The notes under the pieces: generated by a model | Seen by the model: only the letters and a program-made list of their open reading frames with translations | Told to the model about the DNA's origin: nothing | Database searches by the model: none | Translations under genes and position numbers: made by a program | Shown here: positions 18,497 to 30,191 of the stretch, piece by piece | Numbering within the stretch: position 1 is the stretch's first letter | How the letters are laid out: each line of letters opens with the position of its first letter | Assembly: GCA_947502835.1 (NCBI GenBank) | Contig: CANNBJ010000002.1 | Span: forward strand, 397,850-461,849 | Length of the DNA: 64,000 nucleotides | Reading direction: 5' to 3' | Source of the DNA: Bdellovibrionales bacterium | GTDB taxonomy: Bacteria; Bdellovibrionota; UBA1018; CAIMNF01

Positions 18497-19666
18497 TCAC
18501 GCCCCCGACTTCAAAATCAAATGAGTAATCTCACTTCTCTTTCCAAGGCGATTCGGGGGGCCCCAAAATCCCGTTCCCCGATTCACATACAGTTGTGTTT
18601 GATCGTTCACCCGGTATAACCCCTCCGAGTACTTCAGAACCGTCTTTACGATGAAGGAATAAGGATAAAACTGCCCCGCATGCGTATGTCCTGAAACCTG
18701 AAGGTCATAGCCTGCCTCGGCTGCCTCCTTGATGCTGAAGGGGTTGTGGGCCAGCAGAATCTTGCAGGTGGCGTTGATTTCATTTTTGCAGGCAGCAAAA
18801 GGGTCACTTCGGTGCGATTCCTCATAACGATGTGCGGAATGGTCGAAGACTCCTGCCAGCAGGAGGTGTTCGTCTCCTGCGTCACTCTTCCGGGTCAGGA
18901 TATGATTCGAGTTCTTGAAGACATGGACGCCGATGCTCTCCAGATGTCGGACCCATTCGTGCACACCCGAGTAATACTCGTGGTTACCCGTGCAGAAATA
19001 GACCCCGCTTGGAGCCTTGAGGCGGCTCAAGGGTTCGATTTCGCTTCTCAGTTGCTCAACTGTGCCGTCCACAAGATCACCCGTGATGAAGATTGCGTCC
19101 GCTTCAAGGGACATCACGCGCTCCACCACGTTCTCAAGGTAATCGCGATGAATGAGTGGGCCGATATGAACATCAGAGATTTGCGCGATTTTAAATCCGT
19201 CAAAAGACTTTGGCAGAGTCCGAAGCTTGATTTCAACCCGTTCAATCAGGGGGCCGGCATTCGCCTCGAACATTCCAAGAACCGACGCAGCGGTCGATCC
19301 GGCAATCAACCCGCGGGGGATGCCTGTGGTCATGAAGATCCGCTTTGCCGGATCAAAAGGCTTGGAAAAGAGCCGAAGGATCTCGACAAACAGGAACACC
19401 AGGAAAACGGTGCCAATCCAGCCGAGCAAAGTGAACTGCGTCCATTGCAAAAAATAATCACCGAGTGAAGTCGCGGGAGTGTTGAGGACCCGATTTGAAA
19501 CGGGCCCTGCAATCATGAGGAGTCCGGAGATCCAGAAGAACGCCGCCATGATCCGGTTTCCCTGCGGCGAAAGTCCAAGGTTCCGTTTCAAGATTCGATA
19601 GGTCAGCCAACACACCAGGAAGGTGACGGTGCTGAAGAAGAGCGCGAAGCGAAGGAGCATGCTCAT
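18497..19666 (-). CDS. membrane-anchored calcineurin-like metallophosphoesterase
   Basis: N-terminal TM helices followed by the phosphoesterase motifs ISDVHIGP, ITGDLVDG and GNHEY. Confidence 0.8.
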   Translation of the reverse strand: MSMLLRFALFFSTVTFLVCWLTYRILKRNLGLSPQGNRIMAAFFWISGLLMIAGPVSNRVLNTPATSLGDYFLQWTQFTLLGWIGTVFLVFLFVEILRLFSKPFDPAKRIFMTTGIPRGLIAGSTAASVLGMFEANAGPLIERVEIKLRTLPKSFDGFKIAQISDVHIGPLIHRDYLENVVERVMSLEADAIFITGDLVDGTVEQLRSEIEPLSRLKAPSGVYFCTGNHEYYSGVHEWVRHLESIGVHVFKNSNHILTRKSDAGDEHLLLAGVFDHSAHRYEESHRSDPFAACKNEINATCKILLAHNPFSIKEAAEAGYDLQVSGHTHAGQFYPYSFIVKTVLKYSEGLYRVNDQTQLYVNRGTGFWGPPNRLGKRSEITHLILKSGA

Positions 19667-20639: not shown

Positions 20640-21221
20640 CTAATAGCGGATCTCCTTCGGGTCAACGAATTTGGTCCGTGGACGGGTTTTCGGGGAAGTG
20701 GGAATCGGATTCGCTTCCAGCAGAATTCTCATGGATTCGAGTCCACTCAGCGAGATCGGAATCCTGCTCCACTCCTTGGGCGCGGGGCAAGGGAAATCCC
20801 GATGCCACACCTCGAAATGTTCGCCCAGTGCGCCATGGGGAAAGACGAGCGTTTGCAGACCCGGACTCATCCGGACTTCGAGTGTCTCTCCCCGGAAAGC
20901 CTCGGAGGAGCGCAGAATCCTTTCACGCTCTTCACCCGATTCGATCGGTCGATAGCCGAAAAAGCGCAGGATCGCTCGCCAGAAAGAGGCATCGGGTCGA
21001 TGGGAGCTCCTGTATTCAATGATTGTCATTTCACGAGTGGAAACCATGCTTGCCCACGCAAAGATGCACGAACCCATGAGAAGGGCAATGCCCCTGAGCC
21101 ATCTCAGGGTTTCAGGCGCGAGTTTTGGTTTTGAATCGCCTCCTTGAATCCGCGATAGCGTTTCAGAAAACCACGCTCGAATCCGATCAAGGCGACGAGG
21201 ATCAAGAAGCTCCATACGCAC
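20640..21221 (-). CDS. hypothetical membrane protein (fourth gene of the Flp/TadE cluster)
   Basis: A co-directional ORF with one predicted TM helix (LRWLRGIALLMGSCIFAWASMV). No family assignment. Confidence 0.35.
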   Translation of the reverse strand: MRMELLDPRRLDRIRAWFSETLSRIQGGDSKPKLAPETLRWLRGIALLMGSCIFAWASMVSTREMTIIEYRSSHRPDASFWRAILRFFGYRPIESGEERERILRSSEAFRGETLEVRMSPGLQTLVFPHGALGEHFEVWHRDFPCPAPKEWSRIPISLSGLESMRILLEANPIPTSPKTRPRTKFVDPKEIRY

Positions 21222-21248: not shown

Positions 21249-21746
21249 CTACCGCGACCATCGGACGGACCATTCATGGTGCTTCTCCGCTTGGATCAGG
21301 GCTTCGGTTTCCAATTTTGCCACGCGGATTCCAAGCCGGATTTCCTTTGGCAAGGCCAAAAGGGATGCTGTGGTTTCAGCCTCAAACACAGTGGCGCCCG
21401 GACTGAGCACTTTGAAGTCGAAGTCTGGAAAAATGCCCCGAAACGGCTGATTTCGGAGGCCGCATCCAAGACCGGGAAAGGTATTCCATCGGACCCGCCT
21501 CTCGTTCCAAGCGGTCTTGATGGCCCGTTGAATCACGGATTCGGCAGTGATGAGTTTCCCGAACAACTCAAGAGCCATTGGTCCCGATGGAGTTGCAAGC
21601 AAGGGAAGGGTGGCAAGCCGGGCTGCCTCGATTCTCCGGTAGGATGCTGAAAGATCATTCAACAAGTGGCGAAGAAGGTGCGCCGCGCCTCCCGCACATC
21701 GATCGAGCGTGATCTGTCGTTGGGCGATGGCCCGAATGTGGATCAT
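21249..21746 (-). CDS. hypothetical protein (third gene of the Flp/TadE cluster)
   Basis: The ATG at 21746 lies immediately after the TadE-like stop. The longer track ORF 21249..22127 overlaps the TadE-like frame, so only the distal part is called. Confidence 0.3.
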   Translation of the reverse strand: MIHIRAIAQRQITLDRCAGGAAHLLRHLLNDLSASYRRIEAARLATLPLLATPSGPMALELFGKLITAESVIQRAIKTAWNERRVRWNTFPGLGCGLRNQPFRGIFPDFDFKVLSPGATVFEAETTASLLALPKEIRLGIRVAKLETEALIQAEKHHEWSVRWSR

Positions 21747-21748
21747 GG

Positions 21749-22099
21749 TCAATCCGAACCCTGCTCCGAGGAGGAAGACGAGGAGTGTGACAGCTCCCCC
21801 CAAAGCGAGGAAGCCCTCCCGACCCATCCCTGAAAAGGGGAAAGAGGATCCGGACTTTCGAGATCGCGAAGGGGACTCAGGGATACGGTCTCTGTCACCC
21901 CACTTCTGCAAACGATTTCCACCTTCACCGGTCGATTTTCCTGAATCAGGCGCGCCCTTGCCTCGAGGAATGCAAGTCGGGCGCATCGGGCACGCTGATA
22001 CTCCAGGCCTCCCCAATGAAGGATCCCCGCAATCAGGGGAAGGATCAGGACAAGCAGTACGATCGAGTGTTCGATCAGGATCTGGCCTTTCCGGTTCAT
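21749..22099 (-). CDS. TadE-like pseudopilin
   Basis: N-terminus MNRKGQILIEHSIVLLVLILPLIAGIL: a G followed by x4 then E prepilin-type site and a hydrophobic helix, matching the TadE-like domain pattern. The ATG overlaps the Flp stop (ATGA). Confidence 0.5.
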   Translation of the reverse strand: MNRKGQILIEHSIVLLVLILPLIAGILHWGGLEYQRARCARLAFLEARARLIQENRPVKVEIVCRSGVTETVSLSPLRDLESPDPLSPFQGWVGRASSLWGELSHSSSSSSEQGSD

Positions 22100-22266
22100 G
22101 GCACATGGATTTGTTGAAGGTGTTCATTCACGGTCTCCAGCTTGGCTTTGATCGTTGTTCCAAGGGTCTTCGATGCTGCAATCGAGCCCACCACGATCAA
22201 CATGGCAAGGATCATGTACTCGCTGAGGCCTTGCCCGGATTGGTTTCGGATGAGGGTTGGTTTCAT
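22096..22266 (-). CDS. flp: Flp/Fap family type IVb pilin (56 aa; not in the ORF track)
   Basis: Manual translation: MKPTLIRNQSGQGLSEYMILAMLIVVGSIAASKTLGTTIKAKLETVNEHLQQIHVP. It carries the Flp motif (G x4 EY, then LIxxLIxV...LGTxI). An AGGAG RBS lies 9 nt upstream of the ATG. The gene is translationally coupled to the TadE-like gene. Confidence 0.7.
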   Translation of the reverse strand: MKPTLIRNQSGQGLSEYMILAMLIVVGSIAASKTLGTTIKAKLETVNEHLQQIHVP

Positions 22267-22968: not shown

Positions 22969-23964
22969 TCAGCTCTTGCGCTTTTGGGCATTCAGTTTTT
23001 CAAGCTCGGTCAAGAGCCCGAACGCCCGATACATGAAAATGATGTTTTTTCCGTCGTAGTCAAGGAGGACCTCTTCGCCCGAGACCAGGGTGATGTTCTT
23101 GATGAATCCTTGATCCAGCAACTCCTGCGCAAAACCGAGCGGGATTGCATTTGATTTCAATACCGGTCCGAGATTGAGTCGCTCCATGCCTTCTTCCAGG
23201 GGGGTGGCTTCGGCACGGTTCTGTACGATCAGGGTCAGGACCTTGAAGCCGTTGAGTGAGATTTCCTGCCTTTTTTCATGAGCGGTGAGATTGAGTTCAT
23301 TCAGGAAGTGGATCCATTGATCGAGAAACCGGATGTCGGTAAGAAGAAGGTCTCCCTTCAGGATTTCGATTCCCTTGAATACCTCGATGAGGGAAATCAC
23401 CTTTGCCGCAGGAACTTGAAGGATCTGACCGCTGAATTTCTCGAGGAGTGCGGTCGAAAACTCGATTCCCTCCGAGCTTTGGTTTTTCCCGTATCTGCTG
23501 GCCACAACGAGCAGCCCCGTGCTGAAGCGCAGCAGTTCCTGAATGGTGATGAAGGTGTATTCCTTGGTGCGGTTTCCGTGTTTGTCGATGTCGTACTCGG
23601 TGGAGACATTCTCAAGGATCCTGATGCGGTTGTTCGCGCCCCTCACTCTTGAGGCTATCGTCTTGATGAGGCTTACCAGCCACTCGGGAGCCTGGCCCAA
23701 TGCTGCGTCCAATGCGGGTCTTGTGATTTCGATCACTTCGGTCGTCACCAGGGCTTCGGCGGATGCAGACCGGGGCTGACCATCGAAAAACGAAAGCTCA
23801 CCCACGACTTGTCCTGAGCGGAGTGTTTCGATTTCGATTTTTCCGTCCCCCTTCCGTTTGAAAATCCGGATGGCCCCGCCTTTGATGACGTACATGTTCT
23901 TGGATTGGTCCCCTTCTTCGAAAAGGATGTCTTTTGCCTTCAATATGATTTCTTTGGATGCCAT
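22969..23964 (-). CDS. cyclic-nucleotide-binding domain protein with an uncharacterised C-terminal domain
   Basis: N-terminal cNMP-binding fold (MYVIKGGAIRIFKRKGDGKIEIETLRSGQVVGELSFFDGQPRSASAEA). About 200 aa follow with no Crp-type HTH. Confidence 0.75.
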   Translation of the reverse strand: MASKEIILKAKDILFEEGDQSKNMYVIKGGAIRIFKRKGDGKIEIETLRSGQVVGELSFFDGQPRSASAEALVTTEVIEITRPALDAALGQAPEWLVSLIKTIASRVRGANNRIRILENVSTEYDIDKHGNRTKEYTFITIQELLRFSTGLLVVASRYGKNQSSEGIEFSTALLEKFSGQILQVPAAKVISLIEVFKGIEILKGDLLLTDIRFLDQWIHFLNELNLTAHEKRQEISLNGFKVLTLIVQNRAEATPLEEGMERLNLGPVLKSNAIPLGFAQELLDQGFIKNITLVSGEEVLLDYDGKNIIFMYRAFGLLTELEKLNAQKRKS

Positions 23965-23965
23965 A

Positions 23966-26281
23966 TCACTTTTTCCTCATTTCGATCGACCCATCCCATT
24001 GTTCGGGTGGAGGTGAGTTCCGGAAGTCGTCACAGCGTTCCAGGTAGACTTCGGATGGCTCATCCGCCACCCCGTAAATCTCCTTCGAGAGGACGGAGGC
24101 TTCCCGGAAAAGGGTTGCAGCATCCTCCCAAAGACGCTTCCGGAATGCCGCCTTCCCTTCCTCGAATTTGCCGATGATCCTGGGATCGGTCGGCTGATCG
24201 GAAACGGAGATCAGGCCCACGGCATTCTTCTTGCCCTTGACCTTGACCGTATCGAGAGTCCGGCAATGAAATCGGGTCTGCTCCTGTGCGGGGATCTTCT
24301 CGAGGCATTCTTGTGTGGTCAGGATGTCGCACCCGTAGAGGCGGGTGAGGGACTCGAGTCGGGATGCGAGGTTTACATGGTCTCCGATGACTGTGTAGGC
24401 GAAGATTCGCTTTGAGCCCATGTTCCCGACACTCACGACCCCTGAGTTGATTCCGATTCCCGCACCGACCTCGATTCCGTACCGTTTCTTGAAGTCGGGA
24501 GCGATTTCCTTCAATCGTTTGGTCATTGCCACCGCCGCGGACCAAGCGCGTTCCACATGATCGTCCTGATCCAGCGGAGCTCCCCAGAAAGCCATGATCG
24601 CGTCCCCGATGTATTTGTCGAGGGTTCCCCCGTGTTCAAAAATGATTTCCGTCATTTCCGAAAGGTACTCGTTCAAGAGTTGGGTGAGGGTTTTGGGGTC
24701 CATGTTTTCGGAAAAGGAGGTGAACCCGCGAAGATCACTGAAAAGCACCGTGAGTTCCTTGCGTTCCCCTCCCACCGCGAGACGCGAGGGGTCCTTGAGA
24801 ACAAGGTCCACCACCTGGGGAGCGAGGTATTTGGAAAAAGCATCCCGGACAAATTTCTTCTTTCGCTCCTCGAGAATGTACCGGACGGAGAGAATCAATC
24901 CGAAGATCGCAAGGATCTCGAGAAACAGGAAAGCAGTGGGGAGATTGATGTGGTTTCCAAACAAGAGCCGGATGTCGATCCACCCGAATCCCGCCATGAA
25001 TGAGGTGAACAAAATCAGGCTCGGAATGGCTTGAAGGGTGGAAAACGCCCACGAAAAGAGAAGCCCCAGCACGATGAGCGAGGCCAGCGGGAGCCAAGGC
25101 ATTCCGATTCCGCTTGCGGAACGAAGCTCATCGCGGTCGATCAGGTTGCCGGCGGCGGTTGCGTGACCCTCCACGCCCGGCGTATTGAAGTCGAAGGGGA
25201 ATGCCCGCATGTCATAGATTCCCGTGGCGGAGGTGCCGAAAAACACATGGGAATCCTTGAAGATCTCTCGATCTGCCGGACTGCCGGATTCAAGAGTCCG
25301 GAACAAGTCGATCACATTCACATACTTGAAGGAACGGCTCTTTCCCTTAAAATTCAGATTGATGTAGCCCACGGGTGTGATGGCGATGGGATTCCCCGGA
25401 TCCTTTTCGAAGTAGGCTCTTGAAATCAAGCCATCTGCGGAGAACTCGAGTTTCAACCGGTCGTCACGGGCAAGTTCCGCCAGCTTCAGTCCCAACGACG
25501 GATACACCCGCCCGTTGGCGAAGTTGACGAGACCGTACCGGCGGATATAGCTGTCGGAGTCAGGATTGATCTGAAAGGATCCCGCGTGGAGTGCCGCGTC
25601 CGCGAGAATCGGGATGTTCGAGAATACGCGGACCATGAACTGGAACGGACTTCGATCCTGGATCGCATCGGGAAACCCGTAGGGATCGGGTTGGGCGAAT
25701 TTGGCCAGAGTGGTGTCGATCGTTTGATTCAATTCGGGGTCGTGGATGGGGCATTCTTCTTTCAGTGTGTACCGGGGTTGGCAATAGAGGTCGGCTGCAT
25801 ACCCGAGGACCAGGCGTTTGCGATAGGCTTGGATCACACGGGCAAGGTTCGGATCGCCTTCCAGTTTCCTCGCCTCCGACAAAAGAAACGGTTTTTCCTT
25901 CAAAAGTTCATAAAGCTCATCGGGGACGGTTTTTTCCGCTTCTGAAAAGGTGACATCGAGTGCGAGGGTTTTCGCGCCCAGTTTGAAGATGGCATGGATG
26001 ATGTCGGCATAGGTGTTCCGCGCCCATGGCCACCTTCCGATCAAGCTCACTGAATCATCATCGGCATCGACAATGATGATCTTCCCGGGGGCCGGCTCCG
26101 GCCCGCGGAGACGGAACTTGATGTTGGTCATGAGTCCATTGACGGACTGTGCGATCGGATAAAGTTTGTCGTTCAGTGCGGGATGCAGTTTGCCTTGTTC
26201 GCCCAGGTCGGAGGTGATCTGAAACACCGAAGCGGTCAGAATGATCGGAATCGACAAGGCCCAAAGAGGAAACTTGGTCAT
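23966..26281 (-). CDS. CHASE2-sensor class III adenylate/guanylate cyclase
   Basis: An N-terminal CHASE2 domain with TM helices, then the cyclase catalytic core (LTVLFSDLRGFTSFSE...KYIGDAIMAFWGAP...GINSGVVSVGNMGS...YTVIGDHVNLASRLE). Confidence 0.85.
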   Translation of the reverse strand: MTKFPLWALSIPIILTASVFQITSDLGEQGKLHPALNDKLYPIAQSVNGLMTNIKFRLRGPEPAPGKIIIVDADDDSVSLIGRWPWARNTYADIIHAIFKLGAKTLALDVTFSEAEKTVPDELYELLKEKPFLLSEARKLEGDPNLARVIQAYRKRLVLGYAADLYCQPRYTLKEECPIHDPELNQTIDTTLAKFAQPDPYGFPDAIQDRSPFQFMVRVFSNIPILADAALHAGSFQINPDSDSYIRRYGLVNFANGRVYPSLGLKLAELARDDRLKLEFSADGLISRAYFEKDPGNPIAITPVGYINLNFKGKSRSFKYVNVIDLFRTLESGSPADREIFKDSHVFFGTSATGIYDMRAFPFDFNTPGVEGHATAAGNLIDRDELRSASGIGMPWLPLASLIVLGLLFSWAFSTLQAIPSLILFTSFMAGFGWIDIRLLFGNHINLPTAFLFLEILAIFGLILSVRYILEERKKKFVRDAFSKYLAPQVVDLVLKDPSRLAVGGERKELTVLFSDLRGFTSFSENMDPKTLTQLLNEYLSEMTEIIFEHGGTLDKYIGDAIMAFWGAPLDQDDHVERAWSAAVAMTKRLKEIAPDFKKRYGIEVGAGIGINSGVVSVGNMGSKRIFAYTVIGDHVNLASRLESLTRLYGCDILTTQECLEKIPAQEQTRFHCRTLDTVKVKGKKNAVGLISVSDQPTDPRIIGKFEEGKAAFRKRLWEDAATLFREASVLSKEIYGVADEPSEVYLERCDDFRNSPPPEQWDGSIEMRKK

Positions 26282-26886
26282 GGTACCGTGCGCCCTTTTC
26301 TGCGACTCAAGGTGAATGCGAGGGTTCCAAGGAGAAGTGCACTCACAAGGAGAATGGTTTGAAACCGTTTGAATCCCGAAATGACTCCATCAATGTTGGA
26401 TCCTGCGGCATGAGCGAGATTCATCAGAATCGAAAGGTAAATCACAGTCGAGATGCCATTCAGGAGGTAAAAGGTCCTGGGATGGATGCGGAGGGTTCCC
26501 GCGGTGAAAAAGAGGGCGGTCCGGATGAAGGGCATGAACCGGATGCAGAACACAAAACGACTCCCTTTTTGCGAGAGGAACCCTTCCGCCTGTTTCAGTT
26601 TCGATTCCGGGAGGATCCATTTGAACGGGGCCCTTCGAAGAAGTCCCGGGCCGAATTTCCGTGCGATGAAAAAATTGATCGAGTCACCGGTGATCAGCCC
26701 GAGAAAGGCGATGGGGATCAGGATCGGCAGCTTGAACAGGCCTGCAGCCGCAAGCATGGATGCAGCGATCAGAATCAGATCCGAATTGAGAGGTGCGCCA
26801 ACACCGCATGCGATGAGGCACGTGTAAAAAACAAAGTATCCTTCCGGACCGCTGAACCGCATGAGAAATTCCCTGGCCTGCTCCAT
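26278..26886 (-). CDS. DedA/TVP38-family membrane protein
   Basis: DedA topology and motifs (GxxxxFxxR...FIRTA). The stop overlaps the cyclase start (ATGA). Confidence 0.8.
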   Translation of the reverse strand: MEQAREFLMRFSGPEGYFVFYTCLIACGVGAPLNSDLILIAASMLAAAGLFKLPILIPIAFLGLITGDSINFFIARKFGPGLLRRAPFKWILPESKLKQAEGFLSQKGSRFVFCIRFMPFIRTALFFTAGTLRIHPRTFYLLNGISTVIYLSILMNLAHAAGSNIDGVISGFKRFQTILLVSALLLGTLAFTLSRRKGRTVP

Positions 26887-26962
26887 CCCATCATTTTATG
26901 GAAATCGAGCCGAAAAATCACCTGAAACCCGTGTGGAACGCGAGTGCCAAAATAGTGGTATG

Positions 26963-28222
26963 TCAAGGGCCCGCCTGGAGGTTCCGTCTGAGGCAATCAA
27001 TTGCGGATTGAGCGGCTCTTTCCTTGTTTCGTTCGCGGTGATTCTCGTAGCGATATTCACGGGCAACCGTTCCACCTGCATGGGCAAGTGCGATCCAAAC
27101 GGTTCCCACCGGGGCAAACGGATCCCCGCCGGTGGGGCCGAGATAGCCCGTGGTTGCAAGACCGTAGTCGGTTCCCCACTTCCTCCGGACCCCTTCCGCC
27201 ATGGCGCGCGCGGTTTCCCCGGAAACCACCCCCCGGGACTCGAGCAGCGCTCCCGGAATGCCAAGCTCGCTCTGTTTCAGTTCCTCCTGATAGGGGATGA
27301 TCGCTCCGCGCAGGACTTTGGATGCGCCCGGGATCTGGGTCAGGCGATGGGTCACGAGACCCCCGGTGCAACTTTCAGCCAGGGCGAGCGTCCGGTTCAA
27401 CTCCCGCAGGCGGGTGATCACAAGTGCATCTATGCTGCCAGGCTCCCGTCCAAAATAATCCTCTCCGCACGCCGATTGAAGCTCAGAGGTCATTTCTGCG
27501 AAAAACGCTTCTTCTTCCGGAGTCCGGCACCGCATTTGGAGGCGGAGTCTCACCGTGGTCAGGCTTGGCAAAAATGCGAGTGTCATGGAGGGGATGGAGG
27601 CAACTTTTCTGACAAAAGGATCAAGCCGGCTTGCAAGTGCGCTTTCTCCAACCCCGGTGGTGAGAAGAGTGGTTTTCAAGATCCGCTCGCCCGATGCCAA
27701 GCTCTTTGAGCCAAGGTTTGGAAGAACGAAGCGTTCCATCATGCTCTTCATTTCATGAGGGACTCCGGGCATCACAAACACGGAGGTCTTGCCTTCTTCG
27801 AGGAATTGCCCTGCTGCGGTTCCGCAGTCGTTGTCGATTCGAGTGGCTCCTTTCAGTAAAAAGGCCTGCTTCCGGTTGTTCTCTGTCATCTCGCGATTCC
27901 GGCTCCGGAAGAATTGCTCCAATGTACCGAGCCACTCCTGATCCATTTCGAGCGGGACCTTGAAAAACCGTGAGAGAACTTCGAGGGTGATGTCATCGTG
28001 GGTCGGACCGAGGCCTCCTCCGATCAGAAGGGCATCACTGCTCTTCAGAAGAAAGGAAACCGCGTCCCGGATGGAGTCCTCTCGATCCCCCACAGTGAGA
28101 TGAGCGGTCACTTCCCAGCCGATTTCCGTGAGCCGCTCACTCATCCACTGGGCGTTCGAGTTCAGGACCTGACCGATGAGGAGTTCGTCTCCGATGGTGA
28201 GGAGGGAGGCCTTGCAGGACAT
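26963..28222 (-). CDS. cinA: CinA-family protein (MoCF-like N-domain plus NMN deamidase C-domain)
   Basis: MSCKASLLTIGDELLIGQVLNSNAQWM N-terminus with a C-terminal CinA domain. Internal start at 28222; the track ORF extends to 28399. Confidence 0.85.
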   Translation of the reverse strand: MSCKASLLTIGDELLIGQVLNSNAQWMSERLTEIGWEVTAHLTVGDREDSIRDAVSFLLKSSDALLIGGGLGPTHDDITLEVLSRFFKVPLEMDQEWLGTLEQFFRSRNREMTENNRKQAFLLKGATRIDNDCGTAAGQFLEEGKTSVFVMPGVPHEMKSMMERFVLPNLGSKSLASGERILKTTLLTTGVGESALASRLDPFVRKVASIPSMTLAFLPSLTTVRLRLQMRCRTPEEEAFFAEMTSELQSACGEDYFGREPGSIDALVITRLRELNRTLALAESCTGGLVTHRLTQIPGASKVLRGAIIPYQEELKQSELGIPGALLESRGVVSGETARAMAEGVRRKWGTDYGLATTGYLGPTGGDPFAPVGTVWIALAHAGGTVAREYRYENHRERNKERAAQSAIDCLRRNLQAGP

Positions 28223-28226
28223 GGTC

Positions 28227-30191
28227 TCACTCCTCTTCGTTCGCACGAAGGCGCTCAAGCACCGAAAAGTCTTCGAGAGTGGAGGTGTCGCCCGAGGTTT
28301 TTCCCGTGGTGACCATTTCACGCAGCAGTCTCCGCATGATCTTTCCGGATCGTGTCTTCGGGAGGGCATCGGTGAACCGGATCTCGTCGGGCCGCGCAAT
28401 CGGACCGATTTCCTTTGCCACCCAAGTTTTGAGTTCTTCCTGCATCCGCGGGAGATCGGGGGTTCCGGTCACCGCCCCGGATTTCAAGGAAACGAAAGCG
28501 ATCAGCGCGCTTCCCTTCAGTTCGTCAGGCCTTGCAACCACCGCGGATTCTGCAACCTTCGGATGGGAGACAAGCGCACTTTCGATTTCCGCCGTGCCGA
28601 GGCGATGTCCACTGACATTCACCACATCATCGACCCTTCCCATGATCCAGAAGTATCCGTCCTTATCCTTTCGGGCCCCGTCGCCCGTGAAGTACCACTT
28701 CTGTTTCTTGAAATCCGAGAAGTAAGTTTTCGCGTATCTCTCCGGATCTCCGAAAACATTCCGGAGCATCGAGGGCCAGGGATGTTTCACGACGAGGAGG
28801 CCGCCTTCATTGGGTTTGCAGGGCTTCCCCTCTTTGGTCACCACATCCGCAAGGATTCCCGGCAAGGGAAGCGTCGCAGAGCCCGGTTTGGCGGGGATTG
28901 CACCCGGAAGGGGTGCGATCAAGATCGATCCTGTCTCGGTCTGCCACCAGGTGTCCACGATCGGACATCGCTTCTTCCCGATGACCCTGTGATACCACAT
29001 CCATGCCTCGGGATTGATCGGTTCGCCGACTGTCCCCAATAATCGAAGGGAGCGAAGATCGTGTCGCTCCGGAAAGTCCTCTCCCAAACGCATGAAGGAG
29101 CGGATCGCGGTGGGAGCCGTATAAAAAATCGTGGCCCGATGGCGATCAATCATCGACCAGAGGCGATCGGGAGCGGGGTAGGTGGGAACGCCCTCGTACA
29201 TCAGCAGGGTCGCGCCGTTCATGAGTGGTCCGTAGGCAAGATACGAGTGTCCGGTGATCCAGCCGACATCCGCTGTGCAAAAGTAGATGTCTTCGTCCTT
29301 CAGATCAAAAACGACTTTGCTTGTGTAACGGGTCTGGGTCAGGTAGCCACCGGTCGTGTGCAGGATTCCTTTCGGCTTTCCGGTGGATCCGCTCGTGTAA
29401 AGAATGAACAGAGGGTGTTCACTGTCAAACCCCTCGGCTTTGCAGTCGGTGGAACAACCGGCCAGGAGATCGCTCCACCAGACGTCGCGTCCTTCCTTCA
29501 TCGGGGTTTCCTGTCCTGTCCGTTTCAGGACCACCACGCTCTGAAGACCCGGAACCTGATCCAGCACTGCGTGGACCGCACCCTTCAAGGCGGAGGGGGA
29601 TCCCTTTCGAAATGCGCCGTCCTGGGTGAGCAACACTTTCGCCCTCGAGTCAAGCAGCCGATCCCGCAAGGCTTCGGCCGAGAAGCCCCCGAAGACCACA
29701 TTGTGGGTGGCTCCGATCCTTGCGCAGGCGAGCATGGCTTGCAGGGTTTCCGGAACCATGCCCATGTAAATTCCCACCACATCGCCTTTTCGCACACCCA
29801 GTGAGCGCAGGCCGTTTGCGAGACGGTTCACGTCAAGGGAAAGCTGCTGATAGGTGAGGGTCCTGACCTCTCCGGGCTCCCCTTCCCAGAGAATCGCTGC
29901 TTTGTTTTTCCGGTGGGTGTTCAGATGGATGTCGATCGCGTTCTCGCAGGCATTGAGTTTTCCGCCTGCAAACCATTTTGCGAATGGAAACTTCCACACG
30001 AGGGTTTTCTTGAACGGTTTTTGCCAGAGCAGTTCCTTTGCCTCGTTGGCCCAAAAACGGGTCGGATTGCGCTCCGCAAGCCTCCTCATTTTTTGATAGG
30101 AGGCGAAGCTTGCGATTCCCGCGTGTTTCACGAATTCGGAACTCGGTTTGAAGGTTCGGGATTCTTTCAGGACAGAAGAAATTTCAGGCAT
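28227..30191 (-). CDS. acs: acetyl-CoA synthetase (acetate--CoA ligase)
   Basis: Full-length AMP-forming acyl-CoA synthetase with the Acs motifs ([33 protein letters not shown]). Confidence 0.95.

Follow-up and report, generated by a model that had tools for sequence, protein, structure and literature searches.

A CHASE2 adenylate cyclase and a CRP-like regulator with two winged helices as a probable cAMP signalling pair in Bdellovibrionota

Introduction

What does a cyclic-nucleotide-binding protein control when it is encoded directly behind a membrane cyclase and the rest of its sequence matches no domain family? This question is raised by a run of three minus-strand genes in a 64,000-nucleotide stretch of Bdellovibrionales bacterium DNA (assembly GCA_947502835.1, contig CANNBJ010000002.1, positions 397,850 to 461,849), referred to here as the window. 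The first gene of the run encodes a DedA/VTT-family membrane protein of 202 aa (26278..26886), the second a predicted CHASE2-sensor class IIIb adenylate cyclase of 771 aa with PF05226 and PF00211 (23966..26281), and the third a protein of 331 aa (22969..23964) with the cyclic nucleoside monophosphate (cNMP) binding domain PF00027, the putative effector, which we call the regulator. An earlier note on the window had listed the three open reading frames (ORFs), and all of them were borne out in position, strand and length. The note took them as a unit of sensor, second messenger and effector, and held that the effector ended in an output region of a new kind and was probably not a transcription factor.

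With moderate confidence, we propose that the cyclase and the regulator form a cyclic AMP (cAMP) signalling unit, in which a CHASE2 adenylate cyclase is paired with a CRP-like transcription regulator carrying tandem winged helices. The pair most probably represents a variation on the well-known combination of a cyclase with a CRP-type protein, and not a new kind of effector.

Results

The cyclase core and the nucleotide pocket

In Pfam, the cyclase matched CHASE2 (PF05226, E value 5.6e-41, residues 53-406) and Guanylate_cyc (PF00211, E value 1.7e-24, residues 508-687). The CHASE2 domain, a predicted extracytoplasmic sensor (25064..26125, minus strand, by the Pfam limits), lies between an N-terminal membrane helix at residues 4-22 and a cluster of membrane helices at about residues 389-471, as judged from Kyte-Doolittle windows. 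Membrane helices on either side of CHASE2 are the usual layout of receptor cyclases. In the catalytic domain (24221..24760, minus strand), alignments to solved cyclases located all six catalytic residues, namely the metal-binding Asp516 and Asp560, the substrate-specifying Lys556 and Thr630, and the transition-state residues Asn637 and Arg641. None of the six varied among the 47-48 orthologous cyclases of related loci. The best matches of the cyclase among Protein Data Bank (PDB) sequences were class III catalytic domains. Lys and Thr also occupy the substrate positions of two adenylate cyclases, Pseudomonas aeruginosa CyaB (3r5g) and Spirulina CyaC (1wc1); the corresponding residues are Glu and Gly in Synechocystis Cya2 (2w01), which we take to be a guanylate cyclase. 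Since the Lys556/Thr630 pair matches the one that presumably defines class IIIb adenylate cyclases, cAMP is probably the product.

The extreme C-terminus of the cyclase (window 23966-24010) reads P-P-x-x-x-W-D-G-S/A-I/W-E-M and is conserved across clades in most related loci. It lies past a post-catalytic tail of about 85 residues without a Pfam match, and TGGGATGG is conserved immediately before the cyclase stop, reflecting these conserved last residues.

The ligand-binding half of the regulator comprises a beta-roll and a C-helix (residues 1-120; 23605..23964, minus strand), with the helix at residues 94-120 in the AlphaFold2 model. The match to PF00027 (E value 7.2e-20, residues 8-89) agreed with the cyclic-nucleotide-binding domain proposed earlier. 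The phosphate-binding cassette reads G55-E56 ... R65-S66-A67, and the C-helix bears R106 and R108. Relatives were collected from one genome per species; up to 177 genomes contained one, and the best 80 loci were analysed. G55, E56, R65, S66 and R108 were invariant in all 80, R106 was kept in 79 and A67 in 72. Hence the loss of cassette residues, which would have spoken against an effector role, was looked for and the residues were intact in 80/80. The family profile matched the cAMP sensor Bd1971 (PDB 6HQ5) with an E value of 7.8e-18, among the closest solved matches to the nucleotide-binding domain. A search for homologues gave 62 full-length proteins of about 331 aa at 34-98% identity, all from metagenomes or metagenome-assembled genomes (MAGs); their source pipelines call them CRP-like and report PF00027 alone.

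The C-terminal half of the regulator

Neither Pfam nor NCBIfam gave a match over residues ~120-331 of the regulator (Pfam helix-turn-helix (HTH) models were searched to an E value of 1; HTH_Crp_2 was absent), and the NCBIfam models for CRP, FNR and NtcA covered residues ~10-123 only, far below their cut-offs. A Pfam winged helix, HTH_45, was matched weakly by the C-terminal halves of 3/28 relatives (best E value 1.8e-5). When PDB sequences were searched with a profile of the C-terminal half, the matches were marginal (E value 0.1 or weaker), the CggR winged helix included. As far as the library profiles are concerned, the earlier claim that the C-terminal ~200 aa hold no recognisable domain therefore stands. 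It does not stand at the level of folds and of profile-profile comparison, where two winged helices appear.

The structure prediction and Foldseek search that had been suggested for this region were carried out, with monomer models. AlphaFold2 modelled the full-length regulator from a 39-sequence alignment with a predicted local distance difference test (pLDDT) score of 84.8, and a separate model of residues 116-331 reached a pLDDT of 88.0 and a predicted template modelling (pTM) score of 0.82. In the models, the C-helix (94-120) is followed by a beta-hairpin (122-136; strands 122-126 and 132-136). Residues 139-228 then form a helix, two strands, two helices, a wing and a closing helix. This predicted winged-helix domain 1 (23281..23550, minus strand) corresponds in position and topology to the DNA-binding domain of CRP, and its putative recognition helix (186-198) bears K188, which is conserved in 79/80 members. 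Residues 229-304 form a second winged-helix unit, which is followed by a terminal helix of 26 residues; domain 2 and this long basic helix (305-331) together occupy 22972..23280 (minus strand), and the helix has the conserved end L-N-E-x-K-R-K.

The top Foldseek match of the C-terminal half in the PDB was Bd2879 of Bdellovibrio bacteriovorus (9sfa; E value 2.5e-7, query template modelling (TM) score 0.69, 200 columns, 11% identity), which is deposited as a cyclic nucleotide binding transcription factor (PMC12750041). The next match had an E value of 0.18, and the lower ones were mostly winged-helix regulators of the MarR, CodY and CRP types amid unrelated folds. With the full-length model, Foldseek returned 9sfa with an E value of 2e-19 over 346 columns, followed by CRP, GlxR and Mycobacterium tuberculosis CRP with E values of about 1e-12 over about 215 columns, which are their whole chains. 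By sequence, the full-length family profile matched 9sfa with an E value of 2.7e-13 (residues 6-326 against 4-333).

The relation to CRP was also seen in a profile-profile comparison. In hhalign, the family aligned to Escherichia coli CRP with 97% probability, and the alignment extends past the C-helix to helix D, strands 9-10, helix E and the start of helix F. Because family residues 143-187 are in register with CRP residues 143-182, the first winged helix is, on alignment and model, assigned as a diverged CRP DNA-binding domain. The apparent orphan output domain can now be explained: the cAMP effector derives from CRP and carries a further winged helix. These results contradict the view that the protein lacks a Crp/Fnr-type HTH and is probably not a transcription factor, since the tandem winged-helix models, the Bd2879 match and the CRP register all point the other way. 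The novelty proposed for the output was likewise withdrawn, because a Crp-like HTH was found by profile comparison with E. coli CRP.

An output domain unrelated to HTH regulators would be in keeping with the absence of Pfam and NCBIfam matches over residues 120-331 and with the rarity of the module, whose profile retrieved, from 1.84 billion proteins, only 101 representatives of one and the same architecture. It is an extremely improbable account of the C-terminal ~200 aa, because the winged-helix model is confident, Bd2879 is matched at the E value and TM score given above, the first domain keeps the CRP register and HTH_45 is detected in some members.

The C-helix is separated from the first winged helix by the beta-hairpin insert (residues 121-138; 23551..23604, minus strand) with the motif D-K-H-G-N-R-S/T-K-E-Y. 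Nowhere in the C-terminal half is conservation higher, yet the pLDDT of this stretch is low (~65). According to hhalign the hairpin is a 15-residue insertion relative to CRP and has no counterpart there. The hairpin might act as a ligand lid, an interdomain latch or a DNA contact.

DNA binding as the likely output

DNA binding is the most likely output of the tandem winged-helix module, as judged from alignments and models, although it is not secure. In the C-terminal half, 17 positions are Lys or Arg in at least 80% of the members, including K188 and the terminal K-R-K. Several observations weigh against this output. The paper on Bd2879 itself speaks only of a "putative transcription factor" with "putative DNA-binding domains" (PMC12750041). 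The base-contacting residues R180, E181 and R185 of CRP align with A186, A187 and S191. The mean net charge in the family is -2.3 for winged helix 1 and -1.0 for winged helix 2, compared with +2 for the CRP DNA-binding domain, and the second winged-helix domain of the window protein has a net charge of -5. A Q-E-L-x-D motif is conserved at the putative recognition helix of domain 2. The profile of the C-terminal half alone misses 9sfa by sequence at E values up to 10. A weaker point is that searches ahead of the operon, ahead of stand-alone regulator genes and in the divergent region between the SPOR and pilin genes yielded no conserved palindromic operator.

The operator search, which covered gapped palindromes in upstream regions, found no enrichment of a motif resembling the CRP box or the Clr box. 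Three candidates from it were rejected: CTGAA-N11-TTCAG forms an RNA hairpin of the terminator type whose stem positions covary, ACGAT-N7-ATCGT lies inside the coding sequence of a response regulator, and GGGGCAAG-N6-CTTGCCCC is the terminator that closes a conserved non-coding block.

Kleisin-binding (KITE), MAGE and cullin-type proteins use tandem winged helices as interaction modules. The module might accordingly be a cAMP-gated protein-interaction module that controls a partner protein and does not bind DNA, which we consider rather unlikely. The acidic net charge of both domains, the missing CRP contact residues, the acidic motif at the recognition-helix position of domain 2, the lack of a conserved operator and the putative status of DNA binding in Bd2879 all fit this explanation, and a MAGE homology domain and ORC occurred among the weak Foldseek matches. 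However, the MAGE and ORC matches were very weak (E value ~0.5-0.8, probability 0.1-0.2), and many of the matches just under Bd2879 were DNA-binding winged-helix regulators. The first winged helix takes the position that the DNA-binding domain has in CRP, and the two align in register; the conserved basic positions mentioned above include K188 and the C-terminal K-R-K, and no candidate partner was conserved across the loci. A regulator that binds DNA hence remains our preferred reading.

Distribution of the family and linkage to the cyclase

The regulator family is confined to Bdellovibrionota, narrow and fixed in architecture. The best 80 loci carried almost exclusively the labels Bdellovibrionales, Bacteriovoracaceae, Oligoflexia or similar. 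Full-length representatives mostly measured ~310-390 aa, with the module beginning after an N-terminal domain of ~95-195 residues. No orthologue from a cultured Bdellovibrio was found among named database entries; all matches came from metagenomes or MAGs, and a second, word-indexed search agreed.

The survey of the gene pair across relatives, which had also been suggested, was carried out on the 71 loci with at least 2.4 kb of upstream sequence. A CHASE2 cyclase homologue was found directly upstream of the regulator gene on the same strand in 42/71 loci, down to ~30% identity. The adjacency was observed in 14/15 loci at an identity of at least 45%, in 12/16 at 37-45%, in 14/28 at 33-37% and in 2/12 below 33%. 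The reading of the genes as a sensor, second messenger and effector unit was therefore supported by the intact cyclase core, the cassette in 80/80 relatives and this adjacency, with DedA left outside the core.

The linkage is not uniform, which counts against the pairing. The regulator gene lacks an adjacent cyclase in the other 29 of the 71 loci, and in many of these the convergent SPOR gene and PfkB stay as neighbours. Because SPOR and PfkB neighbours are kept in many cyclase-less loci and a pilin gene is a frequent neighbour in the family, part of the cyclase-regulator adjacency may be inherited gene order. If the adjacency were mostly of this kind, the regulator might sense another nucleotide or respond to another cyclase, with cyclic GMP (cGMP), cyclic di-GMP (c-di-GMP) or cAMP from elsewhere as the ligand. 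This is quite improbable. It would suit the 29 cyclase-less loci and one locus (L017) without a cyclase between DedA and the regulator, and some CRP-like proteins of Bdellovibrio have been proposed as putative c-di-GMP effectors (PMC11323537). On the other hand, the cassette is of the canonical cNMP type and invariant, the Lys/Thr pair of adenylate cyclases is present in all cyclase orthologues, and Bdellovibrio is not known to make cGMP (PMC6717892). The genes are also tightly coupled, with a 1-nt spacer in the close clade, and lie on the same strand across three labelled lineages. The pairing of the regulator with the CHASE2 cyclase is thus the account that we retain.

In the related locus L017 (4858-6512), the regulator gene, whose product is 47% identical to the window protein, comes directly after DedA without the 2.3-kb cyclase gene, which the operon seems to have lost cleanly. 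In another cyclase-less locus (L040), the neighbour of the regulator gene is a divergent histidine kinase gene. A distant regulator subfamily (L070, L071, L073, L076, L080 and L083; 29-32% identity) has the cassette intact and no adjacent cyclase. In L070 and L083 the regulator gene lies downstream of a thiolase gene, and upstream ORFs of the same size were found in L071, L073 and L080. L070 additionally has two CoA-transferase genes, and two large proteins without a Pfam match (349 and 798 aa) come after its regulator.

Gene junctions and DedA

The genes had been described as chained by start/stop overlaps. This holds for DedA and the cyclase, which overlap by 4 nt (ATGA), but not for the cyclase and the regulator, which are separated by a 1-nt spacer: the TGA stop of the cyclase (23968-23966) is followed by one base and then by the ATG of the regulator gene at 23964. 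A GAGG ribosome-binding site lies within the 3' end of the cyclase gene, ahead of the regulator gene. The genes for ACS (28227-30191), CinA (26963-28222), DedA, the cyclase and the regulator are all on the minus strand.

The DedA/VTT assignment was made with PF09335 (E value 8.7e-17, Pfam), and hydrophobic segments are present; the NCBIfam models for DedA (PRK10847) and UptA matched the 202-aa protein, but under their cut-offs. DedA was present in 14/15 close-clade loci (identity of at least 45%), where it is located upstream of the cyclase, and in none of the other 56 loci. Restricted to loci of the closest clade, DedA stands outside the core of the cyclase-regulator unit, as an accessory or passenger of this lineage.

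A 76-nt spacer (26887..26962, minus strand) separates the CinA stop from the DedA start. It contains the boxes TTGACA, kept in about half of the aligned loci, and TTGGCAC, which is nearly invariant (alignment A3), together with the remnant of an eroded hairpin and U-run. In relatives, these boxes precede a 14-bp hairpin with a U-run ~30 nt 5' of the DedA ATG. The hairpin has a folding energy of -22 kcal/mol in L001 (4982-5012) and L006 (2970-3000), with z scores of -5.8 and -7.3; it is eroded in the window (-9.9 kcal/mol, z score 0) and in L004 (z score -1.8). Where intact, it might serve as a terminator or as an attenuator. A scan for consensus promoters and terminators was uninformative.

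Comparison with known systems

The closest protein to the regulator is Bd2879, which ranked first in the structural searches with the full-length model and with the C-terminal half alike. In Bd2879 (PDB 9SFA, CASP16 target T1298), a nucleotide-binding domain (1-118) is followed by two winged HTH domains, HTH1 (125-228) and HTH2 (237-335), and a disordered zinc-finger tail (PMC12750041). The regulator, from the same phylum, has the same architecture with nearly coincident limits (1-120, 121-228 and 229-331). The two proteins nevertheless differ in several respects. Their identity is only 11-16%, and by sequence Bd2879 was reached with the full-length profile but not with that of the C-terminal half alone. 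The phosphate cradle of Bd2879 is degenerate (T65/S66 and D54/Q55), whereas the regulator family keeps E56 and R65/S66. The window regulator ends at residue 331, just past its last helix, and has no Cys/His cluster in place of the zinc-finger tail, and the strongly conserved hairpin motif D-K-H-G-N-R-S-K-E-Y distinguishes the regulator family from Bd2879. Judging from locus tags, Bd2879 is not beside any of the four annotated HD100 cyclases (bd0081, bd1116, bd2640 and bd3072; PMC6717892), whereas the regulator family is cyclase-linked.

With the CRP/FNR regulators (E. coli CRP, M. tuberculosis CRP, GlxR and Clr), the regulator shares the cNMP beta-roll, the C-helix and a winged helix, and the first winged helix has the CRP topology of helix D, strands 9-10, helices E and F and a wing. 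Unlike them, it has no HTH_Crp_2 match, contains the inserted 15-residue hairpin and carries an appended second winged helix and long basic helix. The DNA-contact residues of CRP are not kept, and the winged-helix domain is acidic.

At the level of the system, the closest parallel is CyaD1/Clr of Sinorhizobium meliloti, in which CHASE2-driven cAMP synthesis is read by a CRP-type regulator. The CHASE2 cyclases CyaD1, CyaD2 and CyaK of S. meliloti feed the CRP-family protein Clr in a cAMP cascade; the genes cyaD1 (SMc02176) and clr (SMc02175) lie side by side (PMC5498481, PMC13001267). In contrast to the window regulator, Clr, which comes from a different phylum, has the single HTH of a standard CRP, and both its palindromic box (TGTT-N8-AACA) and its target genes are known. 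Bd1971, a cAMP-sensing EAL phosphodiesterase (6HQ5), resembles the window regulator in its R/S phosphate cradle and the equivalent C-helix arginine, but its output is an EAL enzyme domain and not a pair of winged helices.

Neighbouring genes, promoters and non-coding elements

Downstream of the regulator gene, the window encodes a 56-aa Flp/Fap-like pilin with a G-x4-EY motif (22096-22266, minus strand), whose match to PF04964 (E value 3.4e-4) is below the cut-off. A 116-aa ORF with a hydrophobic TadE-like N-terminus (21749-22099, minus strand) overlaps the pilin ORF by 4 nt and is followed by two proteins without a family match (21249-21872 and 20640-21221, both minus strand). A Flp-like pilin gene lies near the regulator in 49 fetched loci and adjoins the SPOR gene in most of them. 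The pilin was not tied to flp4, the predation-essential pilin gene of B. bacteriovorus, which lies beside bd2719, an RHS element, in a different gene order, and it could not be tied to flp3 of that species either. After PfkB, the window encodes a 389-aa Metallophos protein (18497-19666, minus strand), an order repeated in two related loci. Its candidacy as a cAMP phosphodiesterase was rejected, because it resembles LpxG/YaeI and not CpdA.

Promoter-like boxes were seen in related loci. AAAGTTT-N11-GCCGATA occurs ~29-34 nt upstream of the cyclase ATG in four Bacteriovorax-type loci (L020, L022, L027 and L028), and L082 has the version with ACCGATA; weaker CCGA-type boxes lie upstream of the cyclase in L021 and L038. 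Many stand-alone regulator genes (L030, L031, L041, L043, L048, L052, L057 and L068) have yTAA-N15/16-xCCGA(T/A) 16-22 nt upstream of their ATG, and the box of L057 reads TTAAG-N16-CCGATC. In B. bacteriovorus, the attack-phase FliA consensus was mapped as TTAAG-N16-CCGATA (PMC3627812). By their sequence, the boxes in the related loci are putatively of the sigma-28/FliA type and match this attack-phase consensus. In the window, AAAGTTT-N11-GCCGATA had no match with up to 3 mismatches.

These TTAAG-N16-CCGATA-type promoters of related species, together with the conserved Flp-type pilin neighbour, suggest a further reading, in which the module would mediate cAMP-gated interactions or act as a nucleic-acid binder of an unusual sort, and the pair would form a circuit specific to Bdellovibrionota and connected to the FliA (attack-phase) programme of predatory bacteria. 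We regard this reading as doubtful, and a CRP-like transcription regulator stays the one that we prefer.

A conserved non-coding block of ~100-200 nt was observed 5' of the regulator gene in cyclase-less loci (L030 5640-5935, L048, L059, L062, L068, L031 and L041; alignment A4). It sits between the regulator gene and a divergent upstream gene, a histidine kinase gene where this was checked (L040). The block reads GGCAyG-N4-ATTGAA ... CCGCCCCC ... GATGCG ... CCACCTCGA and ends in a hairpin, GGGGCAAG-N6-CTTGCCCC, with a T-run. Since the block is conserved and had no Rfam family match, it is a candidate small RNA.

Discussion

In the mechanism that we propose, an extracytoplasmic (periplasmic) cue would act on the CHASE2 domain of the membrane cyclase, and the class IIIb catalytic dimer would then make cAMP. 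We infer that cAMP is both the product of the cyclase and the ligand of the regulator, which is encoded one base downstream and whose canonical pocket the nucleotide would occupy. The ligand signal would pass through the C-helix, as in CRP, to the two winged-helix domains. The tandem winged-helix module would bind DNA and alter the transcription of target genes, whichever the direction of regulation may be.

What is new here is a phylum-restricted family of regulators with ~100 cluster representatives. Unlike the solved Bd2879, the family has a canonical cAMP pocket and a genetic tie to a CHASE2 adenylate cyclase, and this tie gives the Bd2879-type class of proteins a natural source of ligand and a testable input. 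The general picture of signalling by a cyclase and a CRP-type protein is unaffected. The module may be part of the attack-phase programme in predators resembling Bdellovibrio, provided that the FliA-type promoters of the related predatory lineages are genuine.

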